64,000 nucleotides of DNA from Minisyncoccota bacterium (GCA_039927695.1 JBDSUM010000017.1:1631-65630), one strand, 5' to 3'. Counted from the first letter of the stretch, positions 9,989 to 30,721 are shown. Program-made: numbers and translations. Notes: generated from the letters alone by a model not told the origin.

Positions 9989-10227
9989 ACTCTTATTATT
10001 AGGGGTGTTGATACTGGGGAAAGAGGTATGTGACTAGTATATACGCTCTGTGTGGGTTGGACTACGGCTCGCTATCGTGGGTACTAGGTAGTGTTTGGTG
10101 GGGGATAACTTGAACCCTTTAAATTCGATGGGGATAACTACCTCCGATATTGCTAGTTTCTACCAGGCTTTCCCCATCGCTATCCCCTGTTTCCTACAGG
10201 ATGTCCCCACCATTATCCCTCTTGTGC
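9989..10227. other. candidate oriC segment (dnaA-dnaN spacer with DnaA-box-like repeats)
   Basis: Several GGGGATAAC / TTATCCC / GGGGATAGC motifs that resemble TTATCCACA DnaA boxes. Sits in the classical dnaA-dnaN spacer. Confidence 0.4.
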
Positions 10228-11574: not shown

Positions 11575-11676
11575 AGTATGCCTAGTATACGTGTCTTTCC
11601 CAGAGTGGAAAGCTGGCGGCTAGAAGCCGCATTTGTTGCACTTCTCCAGTCAACCTGGTACTATCCTGTGGACAAC

Positions 11677-11838
11677 ATGCCTAAGCGAACTTACCAACCA
11701 AAGAAGCGAAAGCGAGCCCGAACTCACGGGTTCCGCGCTCGTTCAGCGACCCCTGGTGGTCGTCGTGTACTCCTCGCGCGTCGCCGTAAGGGTCGCACAA
11801 ACCTCTCCGTCTCTCCAACCAAGACGTTGAGCAAGTAA
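11677..11838 (+). CDS. rpmH: 50S ribosomal protein L34
   Basis: [22 protein letters not shown]. The ORF-track start at 11554 is too long; the true ATG is at 11677. Confidence 0.9.
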
Positions 11839-11850
11839 ATACGCCATTAT

Positions 11851-12180
11851 ATGCTGCCACGGCCCCTCAGGCTTACCAGGCAGGGTTTCTCTAATACTCG
11901 AGGCCTAAAACGCGTGCACAGCACGCATTTTTCGCTTTCATACGGGCACGTCGAGGTCGCAGGTCTTGGTGGCTCAGGAGTCATCGTCCCCAAGAAAGCC
12001 GTTAAGGGTTCTGTGGCTCGTCACTTGCTCAAGCGTCGCGTACGCGCCGTCCTACTTCCCTACAGCAACCCTTCACGCATCTTCATCGTTTCCGCACGGG
12101 CAAAAGCCGATACTCTTTCATATCAAGAACTCGAAGGTGAGCTTTCCGCGCTCATTGGGTCTATAATAAAGAACACCTAA
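11851..12180 (+). CDS. rnpA: ribonuclease P protein component
   Basis: 109-aa basic protein directly after rpmH. RLTRQGFSN motif. Confidence 0.85.
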   Translation: MLPRPLRLTRQGFSNTRGLKRVHSTHFSLSYGHVEVAGLGGSGVIVPKKAVKGSVARHLLKRRVRAVLLPYSNPSRIFIVSARAKADTLSYQELEGELSALIGSIIKNT

Positions 12181-12183
12181 GGC

Positions 12184-12930
12184 ATGATCTCTTCTCTTTT
12201 TCATTCGGTACTCTACGTTCCTATCTATAACCTCCTCATTTTCTTTACAGGAATAGTGCCTGGCGGAGATGTTGGTATTGCTGTCATTATCGTGACCGTT
12301 ATCGTGAAGATTATTACCGCGCCCCTTTCTATTAGCGCGGCAAAGACTCAGCGACGCATGAAGCACGTCGAGCCTCAGATGAAGGCAATCAAGGAAAAGT
12401 ATAAGGACGACAAGGCAAAGCAGGCCACGGAAACGATGGCACTCTATAAAAACAACAGCATTAAGCCGTTTTCGAGCATTTTCACCATGCTCCTTCAGCT
12501 CCCTGTCATTATCGCTCTCTACCTTGTCTTCCGTCGTGAACAGTTACTTCACGCGAATCTCGCTCTTGTATATACCTTTGTTCCGCTCCCAACGAACATC
12601 TCCCCCCTCTTCCTAGGGCTTTTTGCTACCACTGGACATAGCATCACACTCGCAGTAATAGCGGCTGCAACACAATTCCTCCAAGCACGCCTCACTATTC
12701 CCCTTCCCCCAAAGCCTGCTAAGGGAAGCACACCGTCTTCAGGCGAGGAGTTTGCACGAGCGCTTGCCCTGCAGTCACGTCTACTCCTCCCTATACTTAT
12801 CGGTGTCTTCGCTTATACCACTGGTGCAATCGCACTGTACTTCATCACAAGCAGTGTTGTAGCTCTTCTCCAAGAGTTCTACCTTCGCCGCACGACGCAT
12901 GTGCCTGCGACGGAGCCGATTGTTATCTAA
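12184..12930 (+). CDS. yidC: membrane protein insertase YidC (short type)
   Basis: Multi-TM 60 kDa-IMP-like core with KHVEPQMKAIKEKYKDD. Follows rnpA. Confidence 0.85.
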   Translation: MISSLFHSVLYVPIYNLLIFFTGIVPGGDVGIAVIIVTVIVKIITAPLSISAAKTQRRMKHVEPQMKAIKEKYKDDKAKQATETMALYKNNSIKPFSSIFTMLLQLPVIIALYLVFRREQLLHANLALVYTFVPLPTNISPLFLGLFATTGHSITLAVIAAATQFLQARLTIPLPPKPAKGSTPSSGEEFARALALQSRLLLPILIGVFAYTTGAIALYFITSSVVALLQEFYLRRTTHVPATEPIVI

Positions 12931-12970: not shown

Positions 12971-14194
12971 CTATAGGTCGTATGCGTACAGCGCACCGGT
13001 GTGCTTGTCAGTAAACATAAGAATGTCCTCCCCTGGATCTGTGGTGAGTGACACTGCATCTACCGATACTTTTCCTACTTGCGTAGGGTCAACAACAAGC
13101 GTCGCGAGACGTTGTGTCAGGTCTATCTTCCAGATGCGGTCAGTAAAGATAGTCGCACCTTGGTACCAATTATCAGGAAGGTTACCTTGCATTGCTGTTG
13201 GCACCGCACAATACGCCGAGAGGTTGTCAGTAGACCAAGTACACTTCTCTGCAAACGTTGCGAGTGGAAGAGCTGTGCTTGTACGATTCTTAACGTCCAT
13301 CACACGCAAATGTACGACACCGGCGTCTACATAACTGAAGAGTAGCGAAGTGCCTGACGGGCTAGGAAGCACCGAGAGTCCGGGAAACGGCCCAAGTATA
13401 CGGCTAAATCCGCCACTCGTACGATCAATCTGGAATGCGTAGCCATCAATAGATGATGATGGCTTGTTCGTCGCAAAGAAATTACCGTTAGTCGGGTGAA
13501 CTACGAGCGATGAAAGAAGGGTTGAGAACAACGTCTTGGCATTGGTACCATCGGCGTGTGCAATAGTGCCCACAGACCCTGTCGTCCCCGAGAGAAGGCT
13601 AAAGAATGAGCTCGAACCAACGACGAGTGCTTGGTTTAGATCTTGTTCCAATAAGTATCCCTCTCCACTGTGAGCGTCTAAGGAGTATGTATCAATGTGT
13701 TCGCCACCTGCGCTTGTAGAAAGGAATCGTGCATATGCACGAGAGCCATCTGAAAGCCATGAGACTTCTTGTACGCCCGGAAGTGTCTTGTTACTAATGC
13801 GTGTAAGAGTTCGAGCATGCGCGATATACGCGTATACGTTGCCACTCGCACGATCTATAAAGTGAACTTCAACGTCAGGTGTTGTGCTGCTGGTTGAAGC
13901 GGTAGCATCAGTTCCTGGAACCGGGAGCTGCACGTCTACAGCCACCGTACCGCGCGCTACAGGCCCGTCAGTGACTTTAATAAGTCGTGGAGCGAGCTCA
14001 GTACCTGCATTTGAAAGTGTGCCGTCGGTGTTTGGAAGATTTGAGCTTGGTGTTGCATTACCAGCGCCAGTATTATCAAACGGATTCCCCACCGTGAGTG
14101 TCGCAGCCCCTGGAGCAAAGAACATGTAGTACACGCCAACAATAATACCGAGTAGTACGATAATTCCCGCAATGATAATGAGTGTTCGTTTCAT
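12971..14194 (-). CDS. membrane-anchored secreted protein, last gene of T4SS-like operon
   Basis: N-terminal TM/signal anchor and repetitive beta-rich sequence. 4-nt gap to the upstream gene. Confidence 0.5.
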   Translation of the reverse strand: MKRTLIIIAGIIVLLGIIVGVYYMFFAPGAATLTVGNPFDNTGAGNATPSSNLPNTDGTLSNAGTELAPRLIKVTDGPVARGTVAVDVQLPVPGTDATASTSSTTPDVEVHFIDRASGNVYAYIAHARTLTRISNKTLPGVQEVSWLSDGSRAYARFLSTSAGGEHIDTYSLDAHSGEGYLLEQDLNQALVVGSSSFFSLLSGTTGSVGTIAHADGTNAKTLFSTLLSSLVVHPTNGNFFATNKPSSSIDGYAFQIDRTSGGFSRILGPFPGLSVLPSPSGTSLLFSYVDAGVVHLRVMDVKNRTSTALPLATFAEKCTWSTDNLSAYCAVPTAMQGNLPDNWYQGATIFTDRIWKIDLTQRLATLVVDPTQVGKVSVDAVSLTTDPGEDILMFTDKHTGALYAYDL

Positions 14195-14198
14195 GGTA

Positions 14199-15149
14199 TT
14201 AAGGTAAACATGTCATGAGGCCGTCGACACACGTTTGAGGCTTCCCATCGGCATCAAAGCAACTTTTAGGCTGACTAGTTGCTTTGAACTTAGCATAGCC
14301 ACCAGCTGTTTTGCAGGCTGGAACAAATTGATTCCACGCGTAGGCAGATACCGAGTCAGGAACATATGCTTTGTTTACAATATTTGCAACAGCATAAGAT
14401 TGAACTGAACAGTATGCCGTGTATTGATTACACCCCTTTGCGTCACAGGTACCCTTATTTGCAGGAGAACACGTGCTGGTACAGCCCTTGGTCGTAGCCT
14501 CCCCACCATCAGCTGGTATATTAGCTACGGGAGTGCTTTTAGCAGAAGCAGAACACTGGCCGATAAAAGTATTCATAGCTGCTTCAGTCGAGAAAGTGCC
14601 TTTTTTCAAAAGAGTTCCTGTAACAGTTATTGTTGGACCACTTTGCTCACCTTGCAGTGGAACGCCATTATCATCAGTACCAGCAGCGCTCACGTCTACT
14701 TTCTTTAGGTCAGCAGGTTTCAAGACGCTTACATCCAAATTCAGGTTTAATATCTTAGGGTTAATTATTCCAAAGACGATTGCTGGCGAGAGTACAAGTA
14801 CAAGTCCGATAATCGAGTTAGTGATTATTGATTTTGCATGTTCATTACCAGAAACACTCCCTTTATTAACCATAAATAAGAAACCAGCACGCATGATTTG
14901 AAGAACGGCAATTGTTGCAGCTGCTCCAATACAGATTTTGTACAATCCATTAAAGAATGCTGGCAGATTGGGTGAATTTCCCGCGTCAATTATTCCAGGT
15001 ATAGGGTTGAGTGGAATGAAGCCATCGGTAGGTGCGGCTGCAGCCGATGTAGTTGGATCTGCTGCGAATACGATGCACGGTGCAAGAATAACCGTGAGGA
15101 CAAGGAGGTGAGGAAGCAATGCGCGAATGATGGTAAGTGTCTTTTTCAT
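14199..15149 (-). CDS. VirB2/TrbC-like pilin candidate with Cys-rich C-terminal extension
   Basis: Signal peptide, then two hydrophobic helices separated by a short loop (VirB2 topology), then ~170 aa containing 10 Cys. Start taken at the second Met, MKKTLT. Confidence 0.4.
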   Translation of the reverse strand: MKKTLTIIRALLPHLLVLTVILAPCIVFAADPTTSAAAAPTDGFIPLNPIPGIIDAGNSPNLPAFFNGLYKICIGAAATIAVLQIMRAGFLFMVNKGSVSGNEHAKSIITNSIIGLVLVLSPAIVFGIINPKILNLNLDVSVLKPADLKKVDVSAAGTDDNGVPLQGEQSGPTITVTGTLLKKGTFSTEAAMNTFIGQCSASAKSTPVANIPADGGEATTKGCTSTCSPANKGTCDAKGCNQYTAYCSVQSYAVANIVNKAYVPDSVSAYAWNQFVPACKTAGGYAKFKATSQPKSCFDADGKPQTCVDGLMTCLP

Positions 15150-15150
15150 A

Positions 15151-16143
15151 TTAGAAGCCAAATATATTCTTTGCTGCAGCACCGAACGTTACTGAAAGTT
15201 GTGCTGCACCCGACTGTAAAGGTGAACTAGATTCCGCGGCTACACCCAGCAGAGCGGTCCCTTTTCCATTTCCAGATGGTCGCACTGTAATATCTTTACC
15301 AGTTTGACTCGCAGTTCCATTGACTGACCAAGAAAGACTTGGGAGGGATGAGAAGTAATATGGCACGACGCGGTAGGTTTCTTCACTACCAGACATAGTG
15401 ATCGAGCTTGGCAACGCATTTTCGTAACGTGGCCCTAGCAATGGATCATTTTCATAGATTTTAACTATCGGATCAGTTGGGGAGATATTTACCGATGCAG
15501 AACCAACAACACTACTGTCCTGGCTTGAGACGATTACACTAATTACACTGTCACGGTAACGGACAGAGGCGGCTGCAGAAAGAATAGATTTCCCTATACC
15601 TGAAGCTCCCTGAAGGACTTGATCATCGTTTTTCCATGTATATACGAGACTCGATGCCGGAATAGACTTGCCGGAACTGTTGCGCAAATCAGGAATGGCA
15701 ATCAATCGGACACGACCTTCACTACCAATGAGTGAAGCTCCTTCGTAGAAAGGGTGAGTTGTTGAGATTGGCTCAACGACGAGTGCGACATCCGCTGGAC
15801 GAATACTCATTTTCTGGGTATATGTCTGTCCGTTATTTACGACCGTAAGTACAATATTGGTAACGATTCCAGGCCCACCGACAGCGATGCTTGCGCTCTC
15901 AGCTCCACTTCCCTTTTGTACCACTCTGCCATTTACAGAGAATGTAACGGTACTTGCAGAAAGGTCGATGAGATCACTATGCGGCGTAACGGTAACGATC
16001 TGGTATGGTCGTGGATAGTCAGGATTTATGGTAATTGAAAGAGGGTCGACGTTTCCAAACTGAGATTGCGCGTGCACGATAACTCCGCCAAAAGCTCCAA
16101 GACCGAGTAGAAGGAATAATACTAGGGATAGGCGGCGCTTCAT
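15151..16143 (-). CDS. secreted hypothetical protein
   Basis: Signal peptide ending AFGGVIVHA, cleaved before Q. 1-nt gap to the downstream start. Confidence 0.5.
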   Translation of the reverse strand: MKRRLSLVLFLLLGLGAFGGVIVHAQSQFGNVDPLSITINPDYPRPYQIVTVTPHSDLIDLSASTVTFSVNGRVVQKGSGAESASIAVGGPGIVTNIVLTVVNNGQTYTQKMSIRPADVALVVEPISTTHPFYEGASLIGSEGRVRLIAIPDLRNSSGKSIPASSLVYTWKNDDQVLQGASGIGKSILSAAASVRYRDSVISVIVSSQDSSVVGSASVNISPTDPIVKIYENDPLLGPRYENALPSSITMSGSEETYRVVPYYFSSLPSLSWSVNGTASQTGKDITVRPSGNGKGTALLGVAAESSSPLQSGAAQLSVTFGAAAKNIFGF

Positions 16144-16216
16144 CGTGTCTACAGTATACCTTGCACCGCACGCTCAACTGAAGCTATTAACTCCTTAATG
16201 TTGATGAAAAGTAAGA

Positions 16217-17497
16217 CTAAACACTTTCTGCCTTTAACGCCTGGGAAGCAAGTTTTCGAGTGAGCTCCTCATCTCCCTGCGCATAGGCACGAGCTTTCTC
16301 GGGGTAATATTTGATAAGTTCGTCACGGAATTCGTGATGATAATGTGGGTCTCGTTCGTCACGTCCTCTACCATCGTAGCGATGATCAAGAAAAAACTTC
16401 TTATAGACTGGGTCGTCCTTCATATGCTGATAGATACGAGTCTTTTCCTGTGCTGCGTAAGCAGCAACTCTTTTAGGATCTCTTCGTTCAAATTCACGTT
16501 CAACTTCAACCCCAATTTGTTCAGGAATTTTATCAGGTCGTTTTCTACGGTAATATTGATTTAGTTCTTTAAATAGTGGGTCATTTTCCACACCATTCAC
16601 CACAGGACCATACTGCTTAAGATTTTCTTGATACTTACGCTCTATTTCTTCAGTTTCTCGCTGATGTTTTCTCTGAGCTTCTTCTTTATCTCGTCGATAC
16701 TCCTCATTCTTCTTTATGCGAGCACTCTCTTGGGCTGCTTTTCTTTCCTCAGCAATCTTTGTCTCCCGTGCAGTTCTTTCTAATTCACGTTCTCGGTCCT
16801 CTACCTTCAGTGTTTCTGCATTGTGTTGGACTGCAAGGATCTCAGATTCTGCTCTCGGTTCAGTTGCAGGTTTAATCCTTACGGGCCCAGTAGGTGGTGT
16901 TTGTCGTGACAGACTTTGCGGAGCCTCTGCCGGTTTCGTGGCTTGGATATCATGAGCTCTCGATCGACCTCTTAGTGGATTGGGGCTGGCATTCCCTGCT
17001 CCCGATTGACTACGCATACCAACGAGGGTTTGCCCGTTGCGCTGACCCGTAATACGTTCGACAGAACGACCGGAATTTCCGGATGGTTGTTGTTGTGGAT
17101 TGAGCCGTACTGTTTTCGATTGCTGTCTCTTTGGAGTGACTACTGCACTCTTTTGCCTATCTTCTGAACGTGTCGCAAAGATAACCGTGACAACTCCCAT
17201 AGTAATGCCAGGAAGCGCATCAACGATAGGTACGAGCTCAACTACGAGGGTGGTGAGCATGGACGTTACCTTTACCATTGCTTTTTTGCCGCCAAAGTAA
17301 TTAACGCGCATCATTAAGAACCAGATGCCGAACGTTGGAGCTGCAATAAACGTTATGAGATCTGAAGCGAGCACCAACACACCGGTAAAAGCTAATAGAA
17401 CCTGAACGCAATCGAGCACAATTGCCGTCATTATCATAAAACCTCCCGAAATTAGACCAATTCGGTACTCGATTTTTGGCGTAGTTTCCTGTGCCAT
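16217..17497 (-). CDS. polytopic membrane protein with long K/R/E-rich coiled-coil tail
   Basis: About 4 TM helices in the first 110 aa, then a highly charged helical region. Confidence 0.5.
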   Translation of the reverse strand: MAQETTPKIEYRIGLISGGFMIMTAIVLDCVQVLLAFTGVLVLASDLITFIAAPTFGIWFLMMRVNYFGGKKAMVKVTSMLTTLVVELVPIVDALPGITMGVVTVIFATRSEDRQKSAVVTPKRQQSKTVRLNPQQQPSGNSGRSVERITGQRNGQTLVGMRSQSGAGNASPNPLRGRSRAHDIQATKPAEAPQSLSRQTPPTGPVRIKPATEPRAESEILAVQHNAETLKVEDRERELERTARETKIAEERKAAQESARIKKNEEYRRDKEEAQRKHQRETEEIERKYQENLKQYGPVVNGVENDPLFKELNQYYRRKRPDKIPEQIGVEVEREFERRDPKRVAAYAAQEKTRIYQHMKDDPVYKKFFLDHRYDGRGRDERDPHYHHEFRDELIKYYPEKARAYAQGDEELTRKLASQALKAESV

Positions 17498-17506
17498 ATC
17501 TGCGCG

Positions 17507-19342
17507 TTAACTTGTTGAAGAAACTCCACCCTCTTCCTCCTGACGTTGCTTTTCGCGCTTTATAGCCAAAAGTTGGGAAGGGTCTGAAGTAATTATTTGA
17601 TCTTCGGTGTAGGACGCTACTATCTTAATAGCTACGTGCTTTAGACCAGCGAAGAACAAGCCTTCCCCCACTCCTGATTCGAGCAAGAGGAATTTCTCTT
17701 CGTCAGTGAGATTGAAAGTTTCTTTTAGGATATCGATCGTTGTCGGTGATTGCTTGAGGAGAAGCTGAATGGACGAGTTTGTAAGAATCGGGCGGCCATA
17801 CGGGCTGCGAAGGAAGTCTTCAACGTCCTGTGTGATAGTTGCAACCCCAAGGAAGTATTTACGACCACGCTTAGCGAGTGAGTACAAGAATGAAGCGGTG
17901 TCGTCTGATTTCATCATCCACCACGCTTCGTCGATTATGAGTAATCGCTTCTTAAGCTCTGCACGAACAGCATTCCAAATGAAGTGCGTCACAATATACA
18001 TGGCGACAGGTTTAAGCTCGTCTTCCATGTCACGCACAGAAAACACAATGAATTGCTTCTTAATATCAACGTTTGTAGGGCGATTTAAGAATCCAGACCA
18101 CGTACCTTTAGTGTATTTTGTAAGACGAATGACGAGTGACTCAGAACCTTCCATACCGGAAAGCACATTCTCAAAATCCGAAAGGAGTGGCGGCTCCATG
18201 CCGTTGAAGTTTGCATCGCCCGTAATATCCTTTAATGCATAGGTTTCAGAGACGGCACGATCGATGATTGCGTCTTCTTCTGGAGAAAGTCCTCCAAGCA
18301 TGATGCGGAACAATCCAACAAGATTGATGATGTTTGAACGCAAGATATCAGCTGGCTCCTCATCTTCCTTAACCATTGGAAGGTCGAATGGATTAATGTG
18401 GTGCTCGCTTGAAAGAGAAATATTGAAAAGCCGCCCGCCTGTTGCTTCGGCGAGGTATTCATATTCGCGCTCAGGATCGATGACGATAACGTCTGTATCA
18501 AACATGAGTGAACGAAGAATCTCAAGCTTCACAGCATATGACTTACCTGAACCAGACTTAGCGAACACTACGGAGTTGTAGTTCTCAAGAGAGAAGCGAT
18601 CGAAAAGAATGAGTGACGCGTTGTGTCGATTGATTCCATACAAGATTCCACGGTCACTTGAAAGGTCAAATGATACGAATGGGAAAATACTTGAGAGCGG
18701 AGAAGAGTTCATCTTTGAATGAACATTCAATTCATCAGAAGCGATTGGGAGAGTAGAGCGGAAACCCTGTTCCTGTTCGAAGAGTGCGGGCTTTGTATAT
18801 ACGAGCTTTGAGTCCAGAATTCCACGCACGTCTCCCTCAACCTTATCGAGTTCTTCTTTAGAGGACGCGTAGAGGGTAAGGTAAAGACCAACGTCAAAAA
18901 GTCGTTCCTGTGCTTGCTGGAGATTGTCACGAAGTGTTTCAAGGTCCTGGTACGCAGTGTCGAGCATCGGATCGCGCACAAGCCCTTTTGCTTCCCTATC
19001 GGCGATCTGACTTTGTACTTCCGCAACTTTCTTCTGGAAATTGCGCAATGCCTGCGCTGTTTCCATAGGATGAATGAAGATAGACACATCCAACACTTTG
19101 TCGAGGTTTACGATTGGCGTGAACCAACTGTCTGTAAGGAATCGAGGATATGAAATGGTGTAGAACGTACGTGAGACTTTCTCACCGAGCTCTATTTCTC
19201 GGGAGCCTACCTTCATCGCCGCAGGCGCTATGGTGTCAGCGAGCTCTAGCGTACCAGCTGCATATATATCTTTAGGAAGAACCGGAGCGACCCTCGGTTC
19301 GTCATCTTTGTCTCCTCGTCCTAGAAAATCAAGTAAAGCCAT
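17507..19342 (-). CDS. virB4: type IV secretion VirB4/TrbE/PrgJ family ATPase (ATPase portion)
   Basis: Walker A AKSGSGKSY, Walker B region LLIIDEAWWM. Typical VirB4 length and motifs. Confidence 0.85.
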   Translation of the reverse strand: MALLDFLGRGDKDDEPRVAPVLPKDIYAAGTLELADTIAPAAMKVGSREIELGEKVSRTFYTISYPRFLTDSWFTPIVNLDKVLDVSIFIHPMETAQALRNFQKKVAEVQSQIADREAKGLVRDPMLDTAYQDLETLRDNLQQAQERLFDVGLYLTLYASSKEELDKVEGDVRGILDSKLVYTKPALFEQEQGFRSTLPIASDELNVHSKMNSSPLSSIFPFVSFDLSSDRGILYGINRHNASLILFDRFSLENYNSVVFAKSGSGKSYAVKLEILRSLMFDTDVIVIDPEREYEYLAEATGGRLFNISLSSEHHINPFDLPMVKEDEEPADILRSNIINLVGLFRIMLGGLSPEEDAIIDRAVSETYALKDITGDANFNGMEPPLLSDFENVLSGMEGSESLVIRLTKYTKGTWSGFLNRPTNVDIKKQFIVFSVRDMEDELKPVAMYIVTHFIWNAVRAELKKRLLIIDEAWWMMKSDDTASFLYSLAKRGRKYFLGVATITQDVEDFLRSPYGRPILTNSSIQLLLKQSPTTIDILKETFNLTDEEKFLLLESGVGEGLFFAGLKHVAIKIVASYTEDQIITSDPSQLLAIKREKQRQEEEGGVSSTS

Positions 19343-19345
19343 AGG

Positions 19346-19975
19346 TTATTGCGTATAAGGGATAGGGTTTTCCATATCCGCCAAATTAAAAGAACGATAC
19401 AAGAGCTCGATTATTTCTTCAGTATTAAGAGGCACCGCTCGCAGGCCTGAGGCCGCAAGTCCTCCAGCCACAAGTGACATACGTTGCTCAAGCTGCACAC
19501 GAGTTTCTTCAAACGAGGTATCCCCTTCTGAGCTAGTTGGGGAATGTCCTCCGAAGAATGGAAGTGCGCTCACCGCCTGCTTCACATTTAAAACGCTGTA
19601 CGGCACAACGATATAGAATGTCTTGGTCATAATATCCGCACCTTCAATGAAGTTACGAATGAAGGCTTGGTATTCGCGAAGCTGAATACGCATGAGTTCG
19701 CTCGTCTGCATTTCCATACGCTCCTGCAAAAGCCCGAGGTAGGGACGAATATCCATCTTTCGAGAATGAATAACTATTTGTATAGAAAAATCGAGTGTAT
19801 TAAGAAAGTTCTGGAAACCACCGATGATAGCTTTTTGCTCGTCTTCGGATTTGAGCGCGAAGTTAAGCGACGAGCACATCATGATGCCGCGATACCCGCC
19901 ATCTTTAAGTATGACTACGCCATTGCGTACTTCTTGAACGGGAACAAAGGACTGTGTTGATTTAGATGTTGCCAT
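19346..19975 (-). CDS. VirB4 N-terminal domain fragment, separated from the ATPase ORF by an in-frame TAA
   Basis: EVRNGVVILKDGGYRGIMMCSSLNFALKSEDEQ matches the N-terminal region of Gram-positive VirB4 proteins. Same reading frame as the ORF at 17507-19342. Confidence 0.55.
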   Translation of the reverse strand: MATSKSTQSFVPVQEVRNGVVILKDGGYRGIMMCSSLNFALKSEDEQKAIIGGFQNFLNTLDFSIQIVIHSRKMDIRPYLGLLQERMEMQTSELMRIQLREYQAFIRNFIEGADIMTKTFYIVVPYSVLNVKQAVSALPFFGGHSPTSSEGDTSFEETRVQLEQRMSLVAGGLAASGLRAVPLNTEEIIELLYRSFNLADMENPIPYTQ

Positions 19976-19978
19976 ACC

Positions 19979-20398
19979 TTATATAGGTTCTTGTGGACTA
20001 TTTTGGTCCTTAATATCGAGCGAAAGTGCCAAATCCTTGAGTCTTCCTGAAGAAATACCGAGTTTCTCACGTGGCGGAAGTGGTGCGACAGGCACTACTG
20101 GTCTAGCCTGCTCACTCTTTTCTTCCTTCTTCCAAAGATAGAGACGATCTTTGGTATAGAACGAGAGCCCTGCACCCAACATATCAGTGAAACTCTTATT
20201 GTTTACTTTATAGAAAGCCAAAGCTCCTGCAAAACCTCCTACTGGAATACAGAGTATGATTGCAACAACAAGGGGTAAGTACAAAACAAACACAACACAG
20301 AGCCCAATACCACCGGCAAGGTAAATGAACTGCTTAAGGGTCAGTGGTCCAAAAATCTTGTCTTCAACTTCGATGAACTGTGGAACTTGGTACTCCAT
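19979..20398 (-). CDS. PrgI/VirB3-like small membrane protein
   Basis: MEYQVPQFIEVEDKIFGPLTLKQFIYL followed by two TM helices. Immediately upstream of VirB4, as in prgI-prgJ. Confidence 0.5.
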   Translation of the reverse strand: MEYQVPQFIEVEDKIFGPLTLKQFIYLAGGIGLCVVFVLYLPLVVAIILCIPVGGFAGALAFYKVNNKSFTDMLGAGLSFYTKDRLYLWKKEEKSEQARPVVPVAPLPPREKLGISSGRLKDLALSLDIKDQNSPQEPI

Positions 20399-20459
20399 TA
20401 TAGCTAGTATACCAGCAGTTCTTACTCGTACTCAGTTACTTAACAACTTGAACCTAAAA

Positions 20460-21149
20460 TTAATGCCCTCCGCCGTGTCCTCCTCCCCCATGACCACCTG
20501 CAGCTTTCTTTGCTCCACCACTGCTACCGCCCTTTCCACCAGCTAGCTTCATTGCCTGGTCCTTAAGCTTGAGTACGGTAGTCATTCCAAGTGCAAATAC
20601 TGCACCGATAGCCCCTGCAATCAAGAGGGCACTCCATTTAACGAACTTCCCCGCCCACCAGAATAACCCTTTCTTTATTTTTGCACCCTCACCTCCGCCA
20701 GTTGCTGGTCCGTGAGCGTCACCCCCTTCCTTTCTCATAGCTCCGCCAGCTGCAGCTACAGGAACCCGCTCAATTGTAGAGGTTTCTCTGCTGTGACCAG
20801 CTTCTCTTTCGGCAACTGTTTCTGCAGTGAATATCTGTTCACTTTCCGGTACCGACAGCTCTTCCTCAATCACTTCAAGTTGTTTTTCGTCATGTATCAT
20901 TCCAAGACGCCCCATCACACTCTTTAATTTTTCCTCATCATCAGGAACCATTGCATCATTATCATTTGCAGTTTCCTGAGAAGGCATCGAATACACCGCC
21001 TCATTATCATTTGCTGCTTCAATACTTGGCGTTGGAATAGAAAAAACTACTTCCTCATCATTTGCAGCCATTGGCGTCTCATGGGGATGGTCATTAAGAA
21101 CTGGTTCTGCTTGGGCGTGATTAAGTTTTGGCATAGCGTTTAAACTCAT
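20460..21149 (-). CDS. hypothetical protein with acidic tandem repeats, one TM helix and Gly/His-rich tail
   Basis: Repeats ANDEEVVFSIP / ANDNEAVYSMP / ANDNDAMVP. C-terminal GGHGGGGHGGGH. Confidence 0.4.
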   Translation of the reverse strand: MSLNAMPKLNHAQAEPVLNDHPHETPMAANDEEVVFSIPTPSIEAANDNEAVYSMPSQETANDNDAMVPDDEEKLKSVMGRLGMIHDEKQLEVIEEELSVPESEQIFTAETVAEREAGHSRETSTIERVPVAAAGGAMRKEGGDAHGPATGGGEGAKIKKGLFWWAGKFVKWSALLIAGAIGAVFALGMTTVLKLKDQAMKLAGGKGGSSGGAKKAAGGHGGGGHGGGH

Positions 21150-21161
21150 TAGGCTAGTATA

Positions 21162-22019
21162 TCAACTAATTTGCTCACGATATGGGTCTGAACCATATTC
21201 CTTTGTAAGGGGTTCGGGTCTAGCAATAACAGGAGCTTGAGATGCTTGTGGCTTAAATAACGGCAACTCAGCTGGCTTAGCTGGACTCCATGATCTCGGT
21301 ATCTCAATCGGTGGAGGGGCCGGAACCGCACGTGAATTTACCGGCATTGATGTGTAAGGTACTGATGCGGTCTGAAATGATTGAGCTGGAGACGTTTGCC
21401 ATGGGTGTGGAACTGTCGGCATAGTTCCTGGCAACGAGGCTGGAGCTACTGACTTTGGATGCGTTAGCGCGTCAACATCTCCAGCCATCGTTCGAGCGGG
21501 CTGTATCATTGTCGCCTCTTGTGCAACTGGAGCTTGGACAGGAGCTTGAGACTCAGGGCGAATGAGGTTGTACGCAGGTGGTTCTTGCGGAGTCGGCGGA
21601 GTGACGACGGGTGACGTTTGTGGAGCGGGCGTGGGTACATCATTTGCTGAGCCGACTTGCATGACAGGCACTTGAGCAAGTGTTGAGGGCTGGGGCGCTG
21701 GTGCAGCGCCTCCTATTTTACGTATTTCATCACGTAACGGTACAAACACTTCCTTATTTAAATCTGCAGTGAGTTGACGCGCGATTGGTTCGGGTACGCC
21801 AGCAAATTGGAGTTTGCCAACAAAATCCTCTGGTTTCAATATGCCAAGAAGCATATTTCGTATGTACTCAGTAACATCCCCTGCCACATCAATGTGCAAC
21901 TTGTACCTGTCAGCAACTTTAAGAATAAAATCTATCGCCGCTCCCTCGGTAAGAGAGTCCTGAATCGGTTTAGGCGAAGAATTAAATATTTCAAGAAGCT
22001 GATCGTCAGTAGGTTCCAT
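21162..22019 (-). CDS. hypothetical protein with structured N-domain and Pro-rich C-terminal half
   Basis: 285 aa with PTPAPQTSPVVTPPTPQEPP-type low complexity. Confidence 0.45.
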   Translation of the reverse strand: MEPTDDQLLEIFNSSPKPIQDSLTEGAAIDFILKVADRYKLHIDVAGDVTEYIRNMLLGILKPEDFVGKLQFAGVPEPIARQLTADLNKEVFVPLRDEIRKIGGAAPAPQPSTLAQVPVMQVGSANDVPTPAPQTSPVVTPPTPQEPPAYNLIRPESQAPVQAPVAQEATMIQPARTMAGDVDALTHPKSVAPASLPGTMPTVPHPWQTSPAQSFQTASVPYTSMPVNSRAVPAPPPIEIPRSWSPAKPAELPLFKPQASQAPVIARPEPLTKEYGSDPYREQIS

Positions 22020-22021
22020 AG

Positions 22022-24586
22022 CTATTTAACTTTAATAATACCTTTCCAATACTCCTTAACTTTAGGATTGGCCTTTAGAAGGGCTCTAAAGTCATTCCAA
22101 TGAGGATCTCCCGAAGCCTTAAGACTATTGATGTGATTTTTAACAATAGTTTGCTGTGCATCTGTTAATTTTCCTGGATCAACAAATGCTAACTGGCTCC
22201 CCGTCATCTCATTTAGAACTTCAGCGTTTACGATAGCCTCCCCTGGAATCTTACCAATCGCTTCCCTATTCATGCCCTTTAGTCTAGCTGAGACAAAAAT
22301 AGGGTCACTTAGACGTGCAGTTCTTGCCGTATCGAATTCACTTCGCTGGGCGTCTGTTAGATTATTATTCTTTTTAGCCTCTTTAAAGAGATCTTCGGAG
22401 AGTGCTGCCGCAAGCGACCCGTTCTTGAGAATGTCAGCGTGTGAACTCTGGGCGATTTGACCAAAGTCTTTGGCAGACAAACGGTTTACTGCTGTAGAAA
22501 GATTCTTTTGAGCTAAGTCGTTTTCAGTTTTAAGTGCTGTGTTAGCGGGATCATCTGCGAATGCTTTAGCTGCAGTTTCTGCTTTACGCGCTTGATCAGC
22601 AATACCACCGGCTCCACCAAAACGGAAATCACGCATTTCAATCTTCGCACTTTCATCAATTTCTTTATTATTCATCATCTTTTCGAACATTTCTGGAGAA
22701 AGGTTCTTTGCAATAAGGTCTAGCTTAGGACCATGGGCCTTGAGCACGCCGAGCTCAGCAAGTTGTGCCTCACTAACACCCTTAAGAGCTGCTGCCATAG
22801 ACGCGTTATTTGTTGCATCCCGAACCTTCTTACCAGCGGCAGCTCTATCAAATTCCTTATGACGTTCCTTGTGGTGTTTCTCACTAGCGTCAAACGATGT
22901 TGAGCCACCGAACTTAGCATTTCTTATAGAGGAGAACGCTGATGCAACTCCAGTATCAAGTCCCAAGACATTATTTTTAACAAATAAATTATGACCCAAC
23001 CTAGACTCATATTGTTTTTGGAGAGCTGCAGCGCCCCGGCCAAAAGTGTTACGACCAGCGACACTGCTCAAAGCTCCGAGCGGCTTTCCAATAATGCTCT
23101 GCGCCGTACTTATCGCATAGCTCGCCCCCATGGCACCAAAGGAACTGGCAGCTTTTAATGAGCCTATGAGAAAACCAATAACAATAACGAAAATGAGAAT
23201 AACCCCCATAGTAGAGGTGTCTGGAGCTGTAAGAGCACCGGCAAGACCATCCCCTCCCACATCGCCGAGCCTTTCGGTTACCTTGAGACTTATAAATATA
23301 AGAAGAAGTAATAGTGGGGCAAAGAATGCTTGATGCAAGAGAGTACTCCACCATCTTGAGGCTAATCCGTGGAGCGGTGGAATCGCCATACCTGCAAAAC
23401 CAATAGGCGCAAACACCATCAAGAGCGTGAGTGTGACAGCTCGAATCACGAGCATAATTGAAGCCGCAAGCATAACGATTGCACCGATAGTTGCAAAGAG
23501 GGCAAGGCCAACATACACGGCGATGCTTGGAATACCAAGATTGGCGCTATTAATCTTAAACATTGTAGAAAGACCGCTCGCTTGCATAATACTTCCTCCT
23601 ATACCGTAGTTAACGGAGCAGTTTGCATCATTAGCTTCTGCGGTGGCCAGGCTTGTTGTTTGCCCGGTAATAACTCCACTGAATCCTCCACATGGTTCTG
23701 AATTTGCTTGACTGTATAAAATGGTACTGAATACGTTTGAAGTATCAATAATTGCTTCGGCAGCAAAAAGGCTGAAGTTCATAAGAACCGCAAAAATAAT
23801 GAGTGGAGGAAGTGCTTTCTTTGCATTGTAAGTATGAAGATCTAGAATGGTAGCGAGACCCATGAAAATAAATCCGAAGAGTAAAACCATATTTCCCAAG
23901 TCGCGGAGAATACCCCACGCCAGTAGTAGTCCTGGAGAATTTCCAATAAGCTGCGAGAATTGGAACACTGTCTTTACAACAACAAGGTTGAAGAGAACAC
24001 CTGCAATGCCGAGTATGAAGGTGGCGATGTGGAGAATTGCTCCACCAACTGCGCCGAGAACTTGCTGGCCAACATCGGCAACAGCATTGGTAATTGGAGC
24101 TAGTAGTGACTTACCTACGTTTGCAACAGCTCCGCTACTAGAGCAGGAAGTGGCGCTGTCGCAAGTTTGCGTTGCGCCACTAAAATCGCCTCTCACATAG
24201 GAAACAGCTCCCGCTGCCGTAGTCACCTTACATACTGGCGGGCCGTTAGGTATATAGCATTGCAGCCTGTCACCTTTTTTATATGGCACGGTTAGACCGT
24301 AAAGACCGAAAGATACTGATGAGTCTATCTCTGCAACACCCCCACAATAATATGAGCTGATTGTAACCGAGCTACTCTCACTACAGCGGGTAAGAGTTGC
24401 TGGCGCATCTTTCCATACTCGCTCTAAATATTGCGCAGCGTTCTCAGTCGATGGGTCAGCTGGGGGATCAGCTGCAAGCGCATGCGGTGCAATTGGCGCT
24501 GAAAAAAGCATACCTCCAACAAATAGTGGGAGCATGAGGAAGTACGCTACCCTCTTAGAAAAACAATCTTTAGGGATTCTCCGCAT
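22022..24586 (-). CDS. VirB6/TcpH/PrgH-like polytopic T4SS channel protein with large C-terminal soluble domain
   Basis: 854 aa. Signal/anchor, then ~7-8 TM helices, then a ~350-aa charged helical C-terminus. Size and topology resemble Gram-positive VirB6 homologues. Confidence 0.45.
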   Translation of the reverse strand: MRRIPKDCFSKRVAYFLMLPLFVGGMLFSAPIAPHALAADPPADPSTENAAQYLERVWKDAPATLTRCSESSSVTISSYYCGGVAEIDSSVSFGLYGLTVPYKKGDRLQCYIPNGPPVCKVTTAAGAVSYVRGDFSGATQTCDSATSCSSSGAVANVGKSLLAPITNAVADVGQQVLGAVGGAILHIATFILGIAGVLFNLVVVKTVFQFSQLIGNSPGLLLAWGILRDLGNMVLLFGFIFMGLATILDLHTYNAKKALPPLIIFAVLMNFSLFAAEAIIDTSNVFSTILYSQANSEPCGGFSGVITGQTTSLATAEANDANCSVNYGIGGSIMQASGLSTMFKINSANLGIPSIAVYVGLALFATIGAIVMLAASIMLVIRAVTLTLLMVFAPIGFAGMAIPPLHGLASRWWSTLLHQAFFAPLLLLLIFISLKVTERLGDVGGDGLAGALTAPDTSTMGVILIFVIVIGFLIGSLKAASSFGAMGASYAISTAQSIIGKPLGALSSVAGRNTFGRGAAALQKQYESRLGHNLFVKNNVLGLDTGVASAFSSIRNAKFGGSTSFDASEKHHKERHKEFDRAAAGKKVRDATNNASMAAALKGVSEAQLAELGVLKAHGPKLDLIAKNLSPEMFEKMMNNKEIDESAKIEMRDFRFGGAGGIADQARKAETAAKAFADDPANTALKTENDLAQKNLSTAVNRLSAKDFGQIAQSSHADILKNGSLAAALSEDLFKEAKKNNNLTDAQRSEFDTARTARLSDPIFVSARLKGMNREAIGKIPGEAIVNAEVLNEMTGSQLAFVDPGKLTDAQQTIVKNHINSLKASGDPHWNDFRALLKANPKVKEYWKGIIKVK

Positions 24587-24591
24587 AGCGT

Positions 24592-26160
24592 TTATCTAGC
24601 GACACAACTTGAGGCCAGGTTAGTCATCTGAGTATAGAGAGTGGTCTGACTGCTGCTGGCGCTCGTTGGCTGGCTTTGTATAAATGCTTCGCCAAACTCA
24701 GTTGGAGAGATTATTGGCGAGGAAAGATACGTCTGGTAGCTTATAGTCGCATTTGAGATGACTTGGCTTTTATTTGGAGCATTACTTGCAGAGGCACTTT
24801 TAACTTGGTCTTCCTGCACATTTAACGCACTAAGTGCTCTGGAAGCCTTATCTAATTCTTGATTTCCTTGATTCAAAACGGTAGTTATTTCAGAACGAGT
24901 ACCACATGAAGTCTGTGCCTGAGTAGCTGCGCTGATAATAGTTCCCCACTGCTTCTGGAAATTATTCAAACTTGTACGGTCGTTCTCCAGGGTTTGTACC
25001 CAGCCATTAGCGAGACTTGTTGTCAGTGCATCATACTGTGACGGGCTTGTAGCTTGATCGAGGTACGAAGAGCCCCCACCAGATGTGGGTTGAGACGCTC
25101 CACTCAAGCCACCGCTACCAAGTACCTTATTTACCAACTGTCCCATAAGAGCACCAACGACTTCGTTTATAGAGTCAGCCGCTTGTAGCGAATCCAACCC
25201 CGACTGCAATGTCTTCGGCATCATGCCAACAATTACAGAACCAGGGGTACGTATTGGACTATTTCTACATTGTTCAGCTTTTGAAAGTGAAACAGGCTTC
25301 GTTCCCAGCGCAGTAGAAACCGCATTGTTAGCTGCAGCTAATGCGCCAGCTCTACCTCCTGTTGCAGGAGCGTTAGGGGTGTCTATAACACTTGTTGTGG
25401 GCGCAGCCGACGGAGACGTTGGGCACTCACCTCTCCATGACAGAAATCCTTGGCCATTTTGTATCTCTGACTGGCGTTGCTTCGTTGCAACATCAATACT
25501 CGCCCACAATTGGTCACTTGCCAGTTTATAAGCATCAAACGGGTTATTCGCAGGATTCTGACTTGCTGAGAAAAATCCATTAAAGCCACCTTGTGAGAAG
25601 TTTCCGTCTAGGAACGCTTTCGGATCAGTACTATGCCCGCTTAAGTCATATGCAGAAAGTCCAAGCGCTCCGCTAGTTTCGCGATAATACGCTGAGCGCA
25701 ATTTCTGATTTATTTGATCTTGGAATGGAGAACGTATGTTAAACCCGGTTGAATCCACCACAGTATTATTCAATTGATTAAAAAAATCATCAGCAACAGA
25801 ATCCCCTAGATACTTAAGGTTACTTTGAAGATCACTTACAAATGCTGGAGATCCATTAAATCCAGAGTTTATCCAATTAACAGTACTGCGTGTTATCGAT
25901 TGAATCGTTAGCTTAGCGACTGTCCATGCAAGGCCGTTAAGAATCTTTGATACTACGACAGAATCCACACTTGCTGCGGCACCAATAGTATTTTGAATAA
26001 GGTTTGTAGGATCGATAACAATGTCACCGACTCCCAAAAATGCTTCAGCCTTAGGAGCTTCGTGTACTGCAAAAGATCCATAAGACAGACCTAAAACAAT
26101 AGTGAGAGACAGTACTCCAGCACCAATCTTTTTAACCCATGTACGTGTTCGGGAAGTCAT
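24592..26160 (-). CDS. secreted S/T/N/Q-rich protein (possible surface or adhesin component)
   Basis: Signal peptide, 522 aa, low-complexity polar composition. Its start overlaps the stop of the upstream gene by 1 nt (TAATG). Confidence 0.5.
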   Translation of the reverse strand: MTSRTRTWVKKIGAGVLSLTIVLGLSYGSFAVHEAPKAEAFLGVGDIVIDPTNLIQNTIGAAASVDSVVVSKILNGLAWTVAKLTIQSITRSTVNWINSGFNGSPAFVSDLQSNLKYLGDSVADDFFNQLNNTVVDSTGFNIRSPFQDQINQKLRSAYYRETSGALGLSAYDLSGHSTDPKAFLDGNFSQGGFNGFFSASQNPANNPFDAYKLASDQLWASIDVATKQRQSEIQNGQGFLSWRGECPTSPSAAPTTSVIDTPNAPATGGRAGALAAANNAVSTALGTKPVSLSKAEQCRNSPIRTPGSVIVGMMPKTLQSGLDSLQAADSINEVVGALMGQLVNKVLGSGGLSGASQPTSGGGSSYLDQATSPSQYDALTTSLANGWVQTLENDRTSLNNFQKQWGTIISAATQAQTSCGTRSEITTVLNQGNQELDKASRALSALNVQEDQVKSASASNAPNKSQVISNATISYQTYLSSPIISPTEFGEAFIQSQPTSASSSQTTLYTQMTNLASSCVAR

Positions 26161-27164
26161 TATTTTGGTTGGCTAAGTCTACCGAGAAATACAATCAATG
26201 AACCCGGCGTACCATTCGCAGGCTCACCTCCCTGCAATATGATAGTCGCAATTTTTGTAAGCGTCGTTGCGAGCAATGCTGAAGAATCTTGATAGGTAGA
26301 AAACGCACCGAGAGTACCTAGCGGATCTTTTTCGTATACCGTAATAACATTCGTCGACTTTGCAAGAGAATCAAACGCTTGCACAAGTGCCACATGCTGA
26401 GGCACGAGCGCTGGCGGCACAGAGACTGTCATCAGGTCGTTTGCGATTGCACGATATGCGCTCGATATTGCTATAAGTTTTGGACGGGCGCTCTCGTCAT
26501 TCTTTTCTATCAACGCTTCCATGAGTGGTAGCGGTTGGCTGTTTCCAGCCGGTACGTCATGAGCACGTACTATTTTTTCTACGGATGCCGCGTACGTAAG
26601 AATGTCTATAGAAGGATTCGTGTGAACAGATACCCCTGAGTACGATGAGGCGAGAACTTTACCTGCGCGAGTGCTGAAGTCTCCAAGAAGTTGTGTGAGT
26701 AAAGCTTGTTGTGCCTCGGGAGTCATTTGCTGACCACCTGTAGCTTGGAAAAACTTTTGTAAAAATTGTTGCGAGAACTCGTCAGTGACACTTCCCGGCG
26801 CGGCATCTGGTCCTGGGATGTCTGCTTTGGTAATTGTAGTCGTAGCTTGATCTGCAGGAAGCTGGCTCTTGAGTCCTGTTGGCGTTAGGAGTCCTTTCTG
26901 AGCTGCTTCCCCGTCAGGAATACCGTATGAGTTTGAAATTGCTTTGCTAGGATCAGTACCGTAGAGAGTTTCCTGCCAGTCTGGAAGACCATCATTGTCC
27001 GTGTCCTTTGCAGCGTATGCTGCGAGGAGTTCTTGTGTCGATTCCGCGCTCGCTGAGTTAGTACCAAAAATAGTTGGACCAGAAATTATGTATGAAACGC
27101 CCATGAATGAGAGCGCCAATCCTGATGCTGCGATGATGCGAGTTGTTCGTGCAGATATACTCAT
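26160..27164 (-). CDS. secreted protein with thrombospondin-type Ca-binding motif
   Basis: Signal peptide. DTDNDGLPDWQE motif (DxDxDGxxD). Confidence 0.5.
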   Translation of the reverse strand: MSISARTTRIIAASGLALSFMGVSYIISGPTIFGTNSASAESTQELLAAYAAKDTDNDGLPDWQETLYGTDPSKAISNSYGIPDGEAAQKGLLTPTGLKSQLPADQATTTITKADIPGPDAAPGSVTDEFSQQFLQKFFQATGGQQMTPEAQQALLTQLLGDFSTRAGKVLASSYSGVSVHTNPSIDILTYAASVEKIVRAHDVPAGNSQPLPLMEALIEKNDESARPKLIAISSAYRAIANDLMTVSVPPALVPQHVALVQAFDSLAKSTNVITVYEKDPLGTLGAFSTYQDSSALLATTLTKIATIILQGGEPANGTPGSLIVFLGRLSQPK

Positions 27165-27229: not shown

Positions 27230-28045
27230 TTACTTTTGCGTGTCTTTGTACGCTCCGATTATTTCTGCGAGCGCTTTCCATGAATCAAGTTTCATATCTT
27301 CCGACCGAATATTTTCATCAAGTCCAACGCTTCGAAGACTTTCCAAAATAAATGCTGCAGGCGCTAAATCTTCCAAATTCTTTGCAAGACGTTTTCTTTT
27401 GTGTGCAAAGCCAGTCTTCAGTACCTTGAAGAACATTTTCTCTTCCTCTGGGCTAAAAAAAGCATCATTTCGTATGTTTTGTATAGAAATAACTGCAGAA
27501 TCAACGTTTGGCGCGGGGCGGAACGCCCCGCGAGGTACGGTAAAGCAGTATGTTGGCTCTCCGTAAGCCTTTACGGAGAGCGAAAGGATACTTTGTTTGT
27601 CGTGGGAACGAGCAATTCTCTCAGCTACCTCCTTCTGAACGAGCAAGGTCATAGAATATGGCTTATGTTCAGCTTCAAGGAACATCCGCATGATTTCACC
27701 GGTAATGTAATACGGAATATTTGCGACGAGAGCATACGGATTTCCTAGCGATGTCGGATCAAATGAGCGTATATCTCCGTGAATGAGCTCAAGTTTCCCC
27801 ATCTCAATCTCACTTGCGAAGGTTTCAGCAAGTTGTGGCACAAGTTCGTCATCGGCTTCTACCGCCACCACTTTTCCTGTTTTTGCGAGTAAAGCCCGTG
27901 TAAGCATGCCCGTGCCAGGGCCTATTTCAAGCACCGTTGCTCCTTCGGGCAGCAAGGCGCTCATAACTATGCGTTCCGCTATCTGCGGATGCATCAGAAA
28001 GTTCTGACCCAGTGATTTCTTCGGAAGGTTTCGAGGAGGAGTCAT
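27230..28045 (-). CDS. rsmA: 16S rRNA (adenine1518/1519-N6)-dimethyltransferase
   Basis: SLGQNFL and LEIGPGTG SAM-binding motifs. Confidence 0.85.
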   Translation of the reverse strand: MTPPRNLPKKSLGQNFLMHPQIAERIVMSALLPEGATVLEIGPGTGMLTRALLAKTGKVVAVEADDELVPQLAETFASEIEMGKLELIHGDIRSFDPTSLGNPYALVANIPYYITGEIMRMFLEAEHKPYSMTLLVQKEVAERIARSHDKQSILSLSVKAYGEPTYCFTVPRGAFRPAPNVDSAVISIQNIRNDAFFSPEEEKMFFKVLKTGFAHKRKRLAKNLEDLAPAAFILESLRSVGLDENIRSEDMKLDSWKALAEIIGAYKDTQK

Positions 28046-30438: not shown

Positions 30439-30721
30439 ATCGGAACTCTCCCTCTACTTCTATAATTGATATTTGGCCCTACAGCCACGCGCTAATATCA
30501 TCATAATATTGACATATAGTCAATGAATTTCCTTCATACGTTCTCCACAATACAAGTGTCTGTCAAGAGTTGACCCGCTCGTTTGCCGGGCTATACTTGC
30601 TAGGTTGATTGATACTCTGTAACTCAAGAGATGGCTTAGGTAAGCCATTTTTGTATTCTGAAGATTTGCTGAAGTTCCCCCTGTCCGTCTTATTTTGAAC
30701 ACAAAAAATCCTTCTCACGAT

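Follow-up and report, generated by a model that had tools for sequence, protein, structure and literature searches.

A probable Patescibacteria type IV secretion system encoded near dnaA in a Paceibacteria chromosome

Candidate phyla radiation (CPR) bacteria, or Patescibacteria, account for much of the bacterial diversity that is uncultured and live attached to other microbes. Among their few conserved and apparently essential envelope machines is a type IV secretion system (T4SS). Quinonero-Coronel et al. 2025 (PMC12102498) described a Patescibacteria-specific clade of the VirB4 ATPase that is nested in the MPF_FATA class. In that clade, TrsD, PrgI/VirB3, VirB6 and VirB2-like pilins are encoded near virB4, relaxases are almost never present, and homologues of the type IV coupling protein (T4CP) are common but located elsewhere in the genome. 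In Paceibacteria, the T4SS lies close to dnaA, dnaN, rnpA, ksgA and rpmH (PMC12102498). In Saccharibacteria, epibiotic growth requires the homologous cluster (Wang et al. 2023, PMC10633639) but not ComEC-dependent competence (PMC12857230). Here we analyze a 64,000-nucleotide stretch from a Minisyncoccota bacterium (GCA_039927695.1, JBDSUM010000017.1:1631-65630), referred to below as the window. Its interval 12971-27164 is filled by 12 minus-strand open reading frames (ORFs), g1–g12 in transcription order, which in all likelihood form a chromosomal, vertically inherited Patescibacteria T4SS, representing in Paceibacteria the clade that falls within monoderm MPF_FATA.

Comparison with described systems

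The locus matches the published Patescibacteria-clade T4SS (PMC12102498) in most respects. The genes g6 and g7 lie directly upstream of g8 (VirB4), VirB6 and pilin genes are nearby, there is no relaxase, and the genes are chromosomal, beside dnaA, dnaN, rnpA, ksgA and rpmH. It differs in having a single pilin gene instead of an array, a lineage-specific g5 and an expanded g9, and in nothing essential. The locus is real and had been correctly read in a preliminary description made from the sequence, but it belongs to a kind of system that was already described between 2023 and 2025, and it is one of thousands of near-identical instances. It leaves the general picture unchanged and provides a clean and complete example from Paceibacteria, with all parts listed. 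Our additions are modest, comprising the TrsD assignment, a VirB5-type motif in g2, the C-terminal DPYRE motif in g4 and the finding that VirB4 is extremely conserved. The last three are leads that could guide structural or genetic work, a few Paceibacteria now being in co-culture.

A deposited metagenome-assembled genome of a "Candidatus Paceibacterota bacterium" contains 100% identical proteins for each of g8, g2 and g1, and the other listed best matches of g8 are 86–98% identical, with those that are named all from Paceibacteria/Parcubacteria. A scan of one genome per species yielded at least 535 relatives, of which the best 80 loci were used. They belong to Kaiser-, Nomura-, Taylor- and Campbellbacteria, among other Paceibacteria lineages. 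With all window proteins as tblastn queries, we found one shared order, uvrD-ksgA-g1-g2-g3-g4-g6-g7-g8-(g9)-g10-g11-g12-yidC-rnpA-dnaA-dnaN, in these 80 loci wherever the contig was long enough. Such a shared order indicates that the locus is fixed in the chromosome and inherited vertically, and that it is not an integrated conjugative element. The flanks, in the window and across the 80 species, are ksgA/uvrD and yidC/rnpA/dnaA rather than an integrase and attachment sites, and the G+C content of the operon (0.44–0.50) matches that of its flanks.

The conservation of VirB4 is pronounced, with a median identity of 77% across the 80 species. Compared over the same genome pairs, VirB4 had a higher identity than DnaA in 54 of 55 genomes (medians of 77 and 58%), and it likewise exceeded DnaN (53/53), YidC (65/65), UvrD (17/17) and KsgA (35/35). 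Since the loci were chosen by VirB4 similarity, this comparison is somewhat biased in favor of VirB4; even so, the large gap between VirB4 and DnaA argues for purifying selection at a housekeeping level.

Searches for a coupling protein, a relaxase and VirB11 were negative in the window and in the related loci. A Pfam scan of 51 window ORFs, including every ORF of at least 230 amino acids (aa) plus nine operon or smaller ORFs, revealed no VirD4/TraG coupling-protein, relaxase or VirB11 domain. We also searched the window and the 80 loci, within 10 kb of virB4, by tblastn with pSK41 TrsK, R388 TrwB, the relaxases Nes, TrwC and MobV, and the VirB11 homologue TrwD. This returned two marginal P-loop matches only, one of them in the window, inside a Mg-chelatase-like AAA gene, whereas VirB4 positive controls matched the window and every related locus.

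These results agree with much of the preliminary description, which had proposed 11 to 12 co-directional, tightly packed genes in a small-genome CPR organism, on the chromosome and not in an integrated conjugative element, and lacking VirD4, relaxase and VirB11. The 12 ORFs all lie on the minus strand and overlap or are separated by 1–12 nucleotides, with the exception of gaps of 61 (g5/g6) and 73 nucleotides (g9/g10); the organism belongs to Candidatus Paceibacterota. The synteny comparison across related CPR genomes that had been suggested gave the single shared order described above. The description had also named a relaxase and T4CP immediately outside the window as the sign of an ordinary element; none lies near the operon in the window or near its counterpart in the 80 related species.

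A close experimental counterpart is the SEML1_0006-0019 cluster of Southlakia epibionticum ML1 (PMC10633639). It shares the arrangement of a VirB6-like gene followed by PrgI, a hypothetical gene at the TrsD position and VirB4; its VirB4 has ~612 aa, compared with 611 aa here, both loci encode PF18895 pilins, and it is likewise devoid of a recognized relaxase or coupling protein. Six pilins that are transcribed divergently occur only in the S. epibionticum cluster, as do an NTF2-like (VirB8-like) protein and, following virB4, peptidase and lysozyme genes. In contrast, the present locus has one pilin, no NTF2-like protein that we could find, and a different set of accessory proteins (g1, g2, g10 and g12). 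Essentiality has been shown in Saccharibacteria only.

The core also parallels that of MPF_FATA plasmids (pSK41/pGO1 trs and pIP501 tra), in which the series TrsC(VirB3)-TrsD-TrsE(VirB4)-membrane protein corresponds to g6-g7-g8-g9 and a TrbL/VirB6 homologue is present. Unlike those plasmids, the locus contains no VirD4, relaxase, topoisomerase, single-stranded DNA-binding protein or CHAP hydrolase and is not on a mobile element, while it adds several clade-specific envelope proteins and a VirB2-like pilin to which an extracellular domain is fused. The lack of a T4CP, a relaxase, a VirB8-like protein and an in-operon hydrolase, together with the non-mobile setting, indicates that this is not a conjugative MPF_FATA system despite the same core parts. 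The absence of a local T4CP and relaxase is shared with Bordetella Ptl, Brucella VirB, Helicobacter pylori ComB and archaeal Ced. These are used for non-conjugative purposes and have known substrates, whereas the substrate here is not known; moreover, most of them are diderm MPF_T systems with VirB7/9/10 core complexes, Ced being archaeal, while the system studied here is monoderm.

Table 1. Genes of the operon and other annotated features of the window (positions counted from the first nucleotide of the window)
Feature	Position	Strand	Length (aa)	Assignment
g1	26160-27164	-	334	N-terminal membrane anchor, TSP3-type Ca-binding loop (residues 54-75), all-helical C-terminal domain
g2	24592-26160	-	522	Secreted, all-helical, directly upstream of VirB6-like g3; candidate VirB5/TraI-like minor pilin
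g3	22022-24586	-	854	Polytopic membrane protein, VirB6/TrbL-like, extended at the C-terminus by a long hydrophilic region ("extended VirB6")
g4	21162-22019	-	285	Conserved ~105-aa N-terminal domain, variable Pro-rich linker, C-terminal ...EYGxDPYRE
g5	20460-21149	-	229	Acidic N-terminal region with ANDxE repeats, one C-terminal transmembrane segment, Gly/His tail
g6	19979-20398	-	139	PrgI/VirB3-like membrane protein; PF12666 43.4 bits (gathering cut-off 27)
g7	19346-19975	-	209	Soluble TrsD-like protein, relative of the VirB4 N-terminal domain
g8	17507-19342	-	611	VirB4 ATPase, MPF_FATA/TrsE type; PF19044 (TraG P-loop) 93 bits, AAA_10, DUF87
g9	16217-17497	-	426	~3 N-terminal transmembrane segments, then long Lys/Arg/Glu-rich C-terminal extension
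g10	15151-16143	-	330	Signal peptide or anchor, then three tandem beta-sandwich (Ig-like) modules
g11	14199-15182	-	327	VirB2-like pilin module (signal peptide and two hydrophobic helices) fused to Cys-rich C-terminal domain
g12	12971-14194	-	407	N-terminal membrane anchor and probable beta-propeller; profile against TolB E=5.6e-4
dnaN	8888-9988	-		Pfam assignment
dnaA	10228-11574	-		Pfam assignment
rpmH	~11677-11838	+		L34 sequence found
rnpA	11851-12180	+		Pfam assignment
yidC	12184-12930	+		Pfam assignment; convergent with g12
ksgA	27230-28045	-		Pfam assignment; conserved neighbor upstream of g1
uvrD/pcrA helicase	28049-29992	-		Pfam assignment; conserved neighbor upstream of ksgA
Endonuclease VII gene	42151-42669			Part of the 42151-47172 element
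Large serine recombinase	43275-44921	-		Abuts tRNA-Pro 43223-43296
LOOT RNA	45223-45342	-		82.5 bits
Bro-N protein	46237-47172			Part of the 42151-47172 element

Secretion core and pilin

The locus encodes a VirB6/VirB3/TrsD/VirB4 core together with a VirB2-like pilin and the conserved envelope proteins g1, g2, g10 and g12 (Table 1). The VirB4 ATPase, g8, aligns with pSK41 TrsE over essentially its full length (23% identity over 592 aa, E=3e-37). In tblastn searches TrsE gave E=1.7e-30, against E=0.002 for the proteobacterial MPF_T protein TrwK of R388; this far greater similarity to TrsE fits the monoderm MPF_FATA class. The PrgI/VirB3-like g6, which scores above the PF12666 cut-off, was detected by tblastn in 77 of the 80 loci with a median identity of 49%.

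The adjacent 209-aa gene, g7, had been left without assignment; its profile matches and position identify it as TrsD-like. It matches two models of full-length VirB4 in their N-terminal part (NF045975, positions 100-233 of 894, E=2e-9; NF045971, positions 2-134 of 752, E=1.4e-7) as well as the TrsD family NF041427 (E=2.7e-3), and it occupies the place of trsD in pSK41, where the order is TrsC-TrsD-TrsE. A profile comparison with a single TrsD sequence in hhalign gave a weak match (E=0.008), the NCBIfam models being more informative. By tblastn, g7 is present in all 80 loci with a median identity of 56%. We considered whether VirB4 had been split, leaving g7 as its N-terminal domain, and rejected this, as g8 aligns with TrsE at residues 35-574. 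Because g8 is itself full length, g7 is a separate TrsD-like paralogue, as in pSK41.

The VirB6 and pilin assignments draw on orthologues. The polytopic g3 has ~7 hydrophobic segments. Its own match to TrbL is weak (E=0.071 over 174 of 215 profile positions), as is its hhalign match to R388 TrwI, which covers the equivalent transmembrane region (E=0.011); TrbL was matched significantly by 8 of 40 orthologues (best 1.9e-7). Similarly, g11, whose true start is likely the Met of MKKTL at ~15149, scores 20.5 bits against PF18895, below the cut-off of 26.6, while its orthologues match T4SS_pilin in 36 of 41 cases (best 3e-11) and TrbC/VirB2 in 18 of 41. In the alignment of these proteins the N-terminal pilin module is conserved and the Cys-rich C-terminal domain, which contains 12 Cys residues in g11, is divergent. 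The window contains no paralogue of g11, no extra pilin gene and no other paralogues.

Taken against the preliminary description, the PrgI/VirB3-like protein is borne out by the PF12666 score, VirB4 by PF19044, AAA_10 and the full-length alignment with TrsE, the VirB6/TcpH-like polytopic protein by its hydrophobic segments and the TrbL matches of its orthologues, and the VirB2-like pilin candidate by its orthologues in spite of its own sub-threshold score. The description had left most components without an assignable function; of these, g7 can now be called TrsD-like. At least five secreted or membrane proteins had also been listed, among them acidic, Pro-rich and Ca-binding ones; all are present, but the Pro-rich g4 is probably cytoplasmic.

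Envelope and accessory proteins

The secreted protein g2 is a possible VirB5-like component, which we regard as a lead and not a finding. DUF4141 was matched by 13 of 77 g2 homologues at residues ~18-59, the best reaching 30.8 bits against a cut-off of 30 and being the only one above it. This family marks a Bacteroides conjugative-transposon protein encoded beside traJ (PMC10434189), and this protein, TraI of CTnDOT, has been reported to be homologous to VirB5 (PMC4027160). The N-terminal region of g2 itself gave a weak match to TrbJ (E=0.011). In addition, a motif of the (G)IPVxD or IVIDPTNL type follows directly after the signal peptide in the g2 family, and R388 TrwJ similarly has AQGIPVFDG. 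The AlphaFold2 (AF2) model of g2 is all-helical, with a predicted local distance difference test score (pLDDT) of 67.5, and contains a helical bundle at residues 370-520 with values above 90. Searches against solved structures (Foldseek against the PDB and PDB profile searches) and against TrwJ in hhalign returned nothing significant.

Two further envelope proteins are widespread among the related loci. In tblastn searches, g10 was found in 79 of 80 loci and g12 in 65 of 80, the latter being nearly all that have enough flanking sequence. The consensus of g10 contains three internal W..NG repeats, and its profile matches Hoc, an Ig-like protein (E=0.0017). Pooled orthologues of g10, g12 and g4 were scanned together and produced eight BiPBP_C, four Cadherin-like (best 4.8e-7) and one PKD_3 match, which we attribute to g10, and one PD40 match, which we attribute to g12; these attributions follow fold type and were not made per member.

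The g1 protein carries a transmembrane segment at residues 10-28 and scores 27.1 bits against PF18884 (TSP3_bac), above the cut-off; its NCBI name is thrombospondin type 3 repeat-containing protein. Orthologues were detected by tblastn in 29 of 80 loci. Its AF2 model has a mean pLDDT of 89 and is all-alpha at residues 125-334, with no fold match in the PDB (best E=0.28). A VirB8-like (NTF2) identity, for which g1 is the best candidate of the operon by topology, was considered and rejected, given that this confident model is all-helical and has no PDB fold match.

In contrast to a secreted protein, g4 has neither a signal peptide nor a transmembrane segment and is thus probably cytoplasmic. It contains 16% Pro, and profile searches returned no family match. 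It ends in the near-invariant motif (K/E)EY(G/S)xDPYRE(P), which stands at or within a few residues of the C-terminus in 30 of 30 loci, with DPYHE in two of them and DPYKE in one. This count used the longest ORF between VirB6 and PrgI in loci within L001-L056. The total length of the orthologues ranges from 158 to 398 aa, reflecting a linker that varies widely. The DPYRE tail resembles a short linear motif for docking or recognition.

The remaining two proteins are restricted or variable. g5, with a transmembrane segment at residues 175-193 and a net charge of -12, is lineage-specific: tblastn found no orthologue in the 80 loci, and positional analogues with a Gly/His tail occur only in the closest of them (L007, L008, L010 and L011). 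The g9 protein had tblastn matches in 13 of 80 loci, covering ~25% of its length and confined to the N-terminal membrane part; where a locus has an ORF at this position, it is ~80–340 aa long (mostly 110–290), and none was found in about one-third of the loci examined. Homology of g9 to pSK41 TrsF, which has the same position and the same length, was rejected in view of the lack of similarity. PHROGs searches gave marginal matches only, with nothing that points to a phage origin of the operon.

Proposed function and chromosomal setting

We hypothesize that VirB4, with TrsD and VirB3, supplies the energy for a pilus or surface filament to be assembled through VirB6, and that the variable Cys-rich domain of the pilin, together with g1, g2, g10 and g12, would form the wall-spanning, host-contacting part. 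The machine, which would be under housekeeping-level selection, could then serve the host-dependent (epibiotic) lifestyle rather than conjugation, by exporting proteins to the host, importing material from it, or both. Such a non-conjugative role, suggested here by analogy, would agree with the published inference. The proposal draws on the essential Saccharibacteria cluster and its matching core order, and on methanogen-associated Paceibacterales cultures, in which T4SS pilins are among the highly expressed genes of unknown function (PMC10936435).

Several points weigh against this interpretation. Membership in the Patescibacteria clade is a provisional assignment, drawn from identity to annotated Paceibacteria proteins and from the greater similarity of VirB4 to TrsE than to TrwK. 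The VirB6 and pilin of the window score under the Pfam cut-offs, with support coming through their orthologues, and profile searches found neither a VirB8-like (NTF2) protein nor an in-operon VirB1-like hydrolase among the operon proteins. The absence of a coupling protein appears to hold only locally, in the window and the related loci, and not genome-wide, VirD4-like genes being present elsewhere in most Patescibacteria genomes (PMC12102498). Finally, the proposed function would be an extrapolation from Saccharibacteria to Paceibacteria, and in Saccharibacteria the role of the T4SS has itself been called "completely unknown" (PMC11665869).

The same data bear on three other explanations. The first takes the locus for an ordinary integrated conjugative element that came to lie near dnaA, or for what is left of one in decay, its relaxase and coupling protein being outside the window or lost. 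This would accord with a core homologous to conjugative MPF_FATA systems, with the pSK41-like order TrsC-TrsD-TrsE, and with the presence of a separate integrated element carrying a serine recombinase at 43–47 kb of the window. The synteny effectively refutes it, however: the housekeeping flanks are the same in 80 species, in none of which an integrase, relaxase or T4CP stands beside the locus, the operon has the composition of its flanks, and a VirB4 more conserved than DnaA is the opposite of what a decaying remnant would show. We therefore give this explanation almost no weight. A machine working inward, taking up DNA or nutrients in the manner of H. pylori ComB or archaeal Ced and supplying nucleotides or other building blocks from the host or the surroundings, is a less remote alternative, though still an unlikely one. 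The absence of a relaxase and of a local T4CP is compatible with import; the idea has been raised because competence is dispensable but the T4SS essential in S. epibionticum (PMC11665869), and in class ABY1 comF, recG and radA adjoin the T4SS (PMC12102498). On the other hand, profile searches of the operon proteins found no DNA-binding, nuclease or ComEC-like component, and a pilin with a Cys-rich domain and Ig-like and propeller proteins look more like parts for contact or adhesion.

Adhesion alone, with the VirB4/VirB6 core building a VirB2-type filament for host attachment and moving no substrate, seems to us about as improbable as import. It would explain a conserved pilin gene whose C-terminal domain diverges fast, a possible VirB5-like protein (g2) adjoining VirB6 and the lack of a coupling protein for substrate recruitment at the locus, and it would suit the high expression of Paceibacterales T4SS pilins noted above. 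Patescibacteria already have type IV pili for adhesion (PMC10633639), however, and Ptl and Brucella VirB still secrete proteins without a T4CP (PMC12102498); the present data do not separate adhesion alone from adhesion combined with transport. Within the preferred interpretation of a host-directed Patescibacteria T4SS, a more specific and rather doubtful proposal is that the Paceibacteria system constitutes a full VirB2-VirB5-VirB6 pilus module in a monoderm, MPF_FATA-derived machine. Here, g2 would act as a divergent VirB5/TraI-like tip or stalk and g11 as a pilin with a fast-evolving, fused host-binding domain, and g4, through its DPYRE tail, would take over docking or recruitment from the missing coupling protein. 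If true, this would make the system a mechanistically distinct, essential host-interface organelle, beyond a trimmed conjugation system.

The preliminary description had placed the operon next to the origin of replication. The operon does end 1.4 kb from dnaA, while for the origin itself the support is gene synteny only: the dnaN-dnaA-rpmH-rnpA-yidC block (8888-12930) is kept in most of the related loci. DnaA boxes were not enriched (16 found against 12.7 expected, which is at chance level), and the cumulative GC skew over the window (1-64000) falls steadily with no inflection at dnaA-rpmH. Because the operon is convergent with yidC, it would run head-on to replication if oriC sits at dnaA-rpmH.

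A terminator-like hairpin (11-bp stem followed by a T run) and then a promoter-like site are located at 30055-29999 on the minus strand, just upstream of uvrD. This pair is the only strong combination of its kind on that strand; the ksgA-g1 interval holds no convincing terminator/promoter pair, and counts of internal promoters and terminators in the operon are at or below the shuffle expectation. With the sole strong pair upstream of uvrD, the 12 T4SS genes may share a transcript with uvrD and ksgA, as one transcription unit of ~17 kb. Beyond uvrD and a small unannotated ORF, a cell-wall hydrolase with LysM and Peptidase_M23 domains is encoded at 30695-31882 on the plus strand. It is a possible functional stand-in for a VirB1-like hydrolase, of the kind mentioned in PMC12102498.

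For two other sizeable ORFs, at 34681-36237 (minus strand, 518 aa) and 62766-63881 (plus strand, 371 aa), the Pfam scan gave nothing at E<=0.01. The region 42151-47172, which shows no relaxase and no link to the T4SS, is a probable integrated element or prophage remnant. It coincides with a dip in G+C to 0.40–0.42, and its recombinase, endonuclease VII, Bro-N and LOOT RNA features are listed in Table 1.

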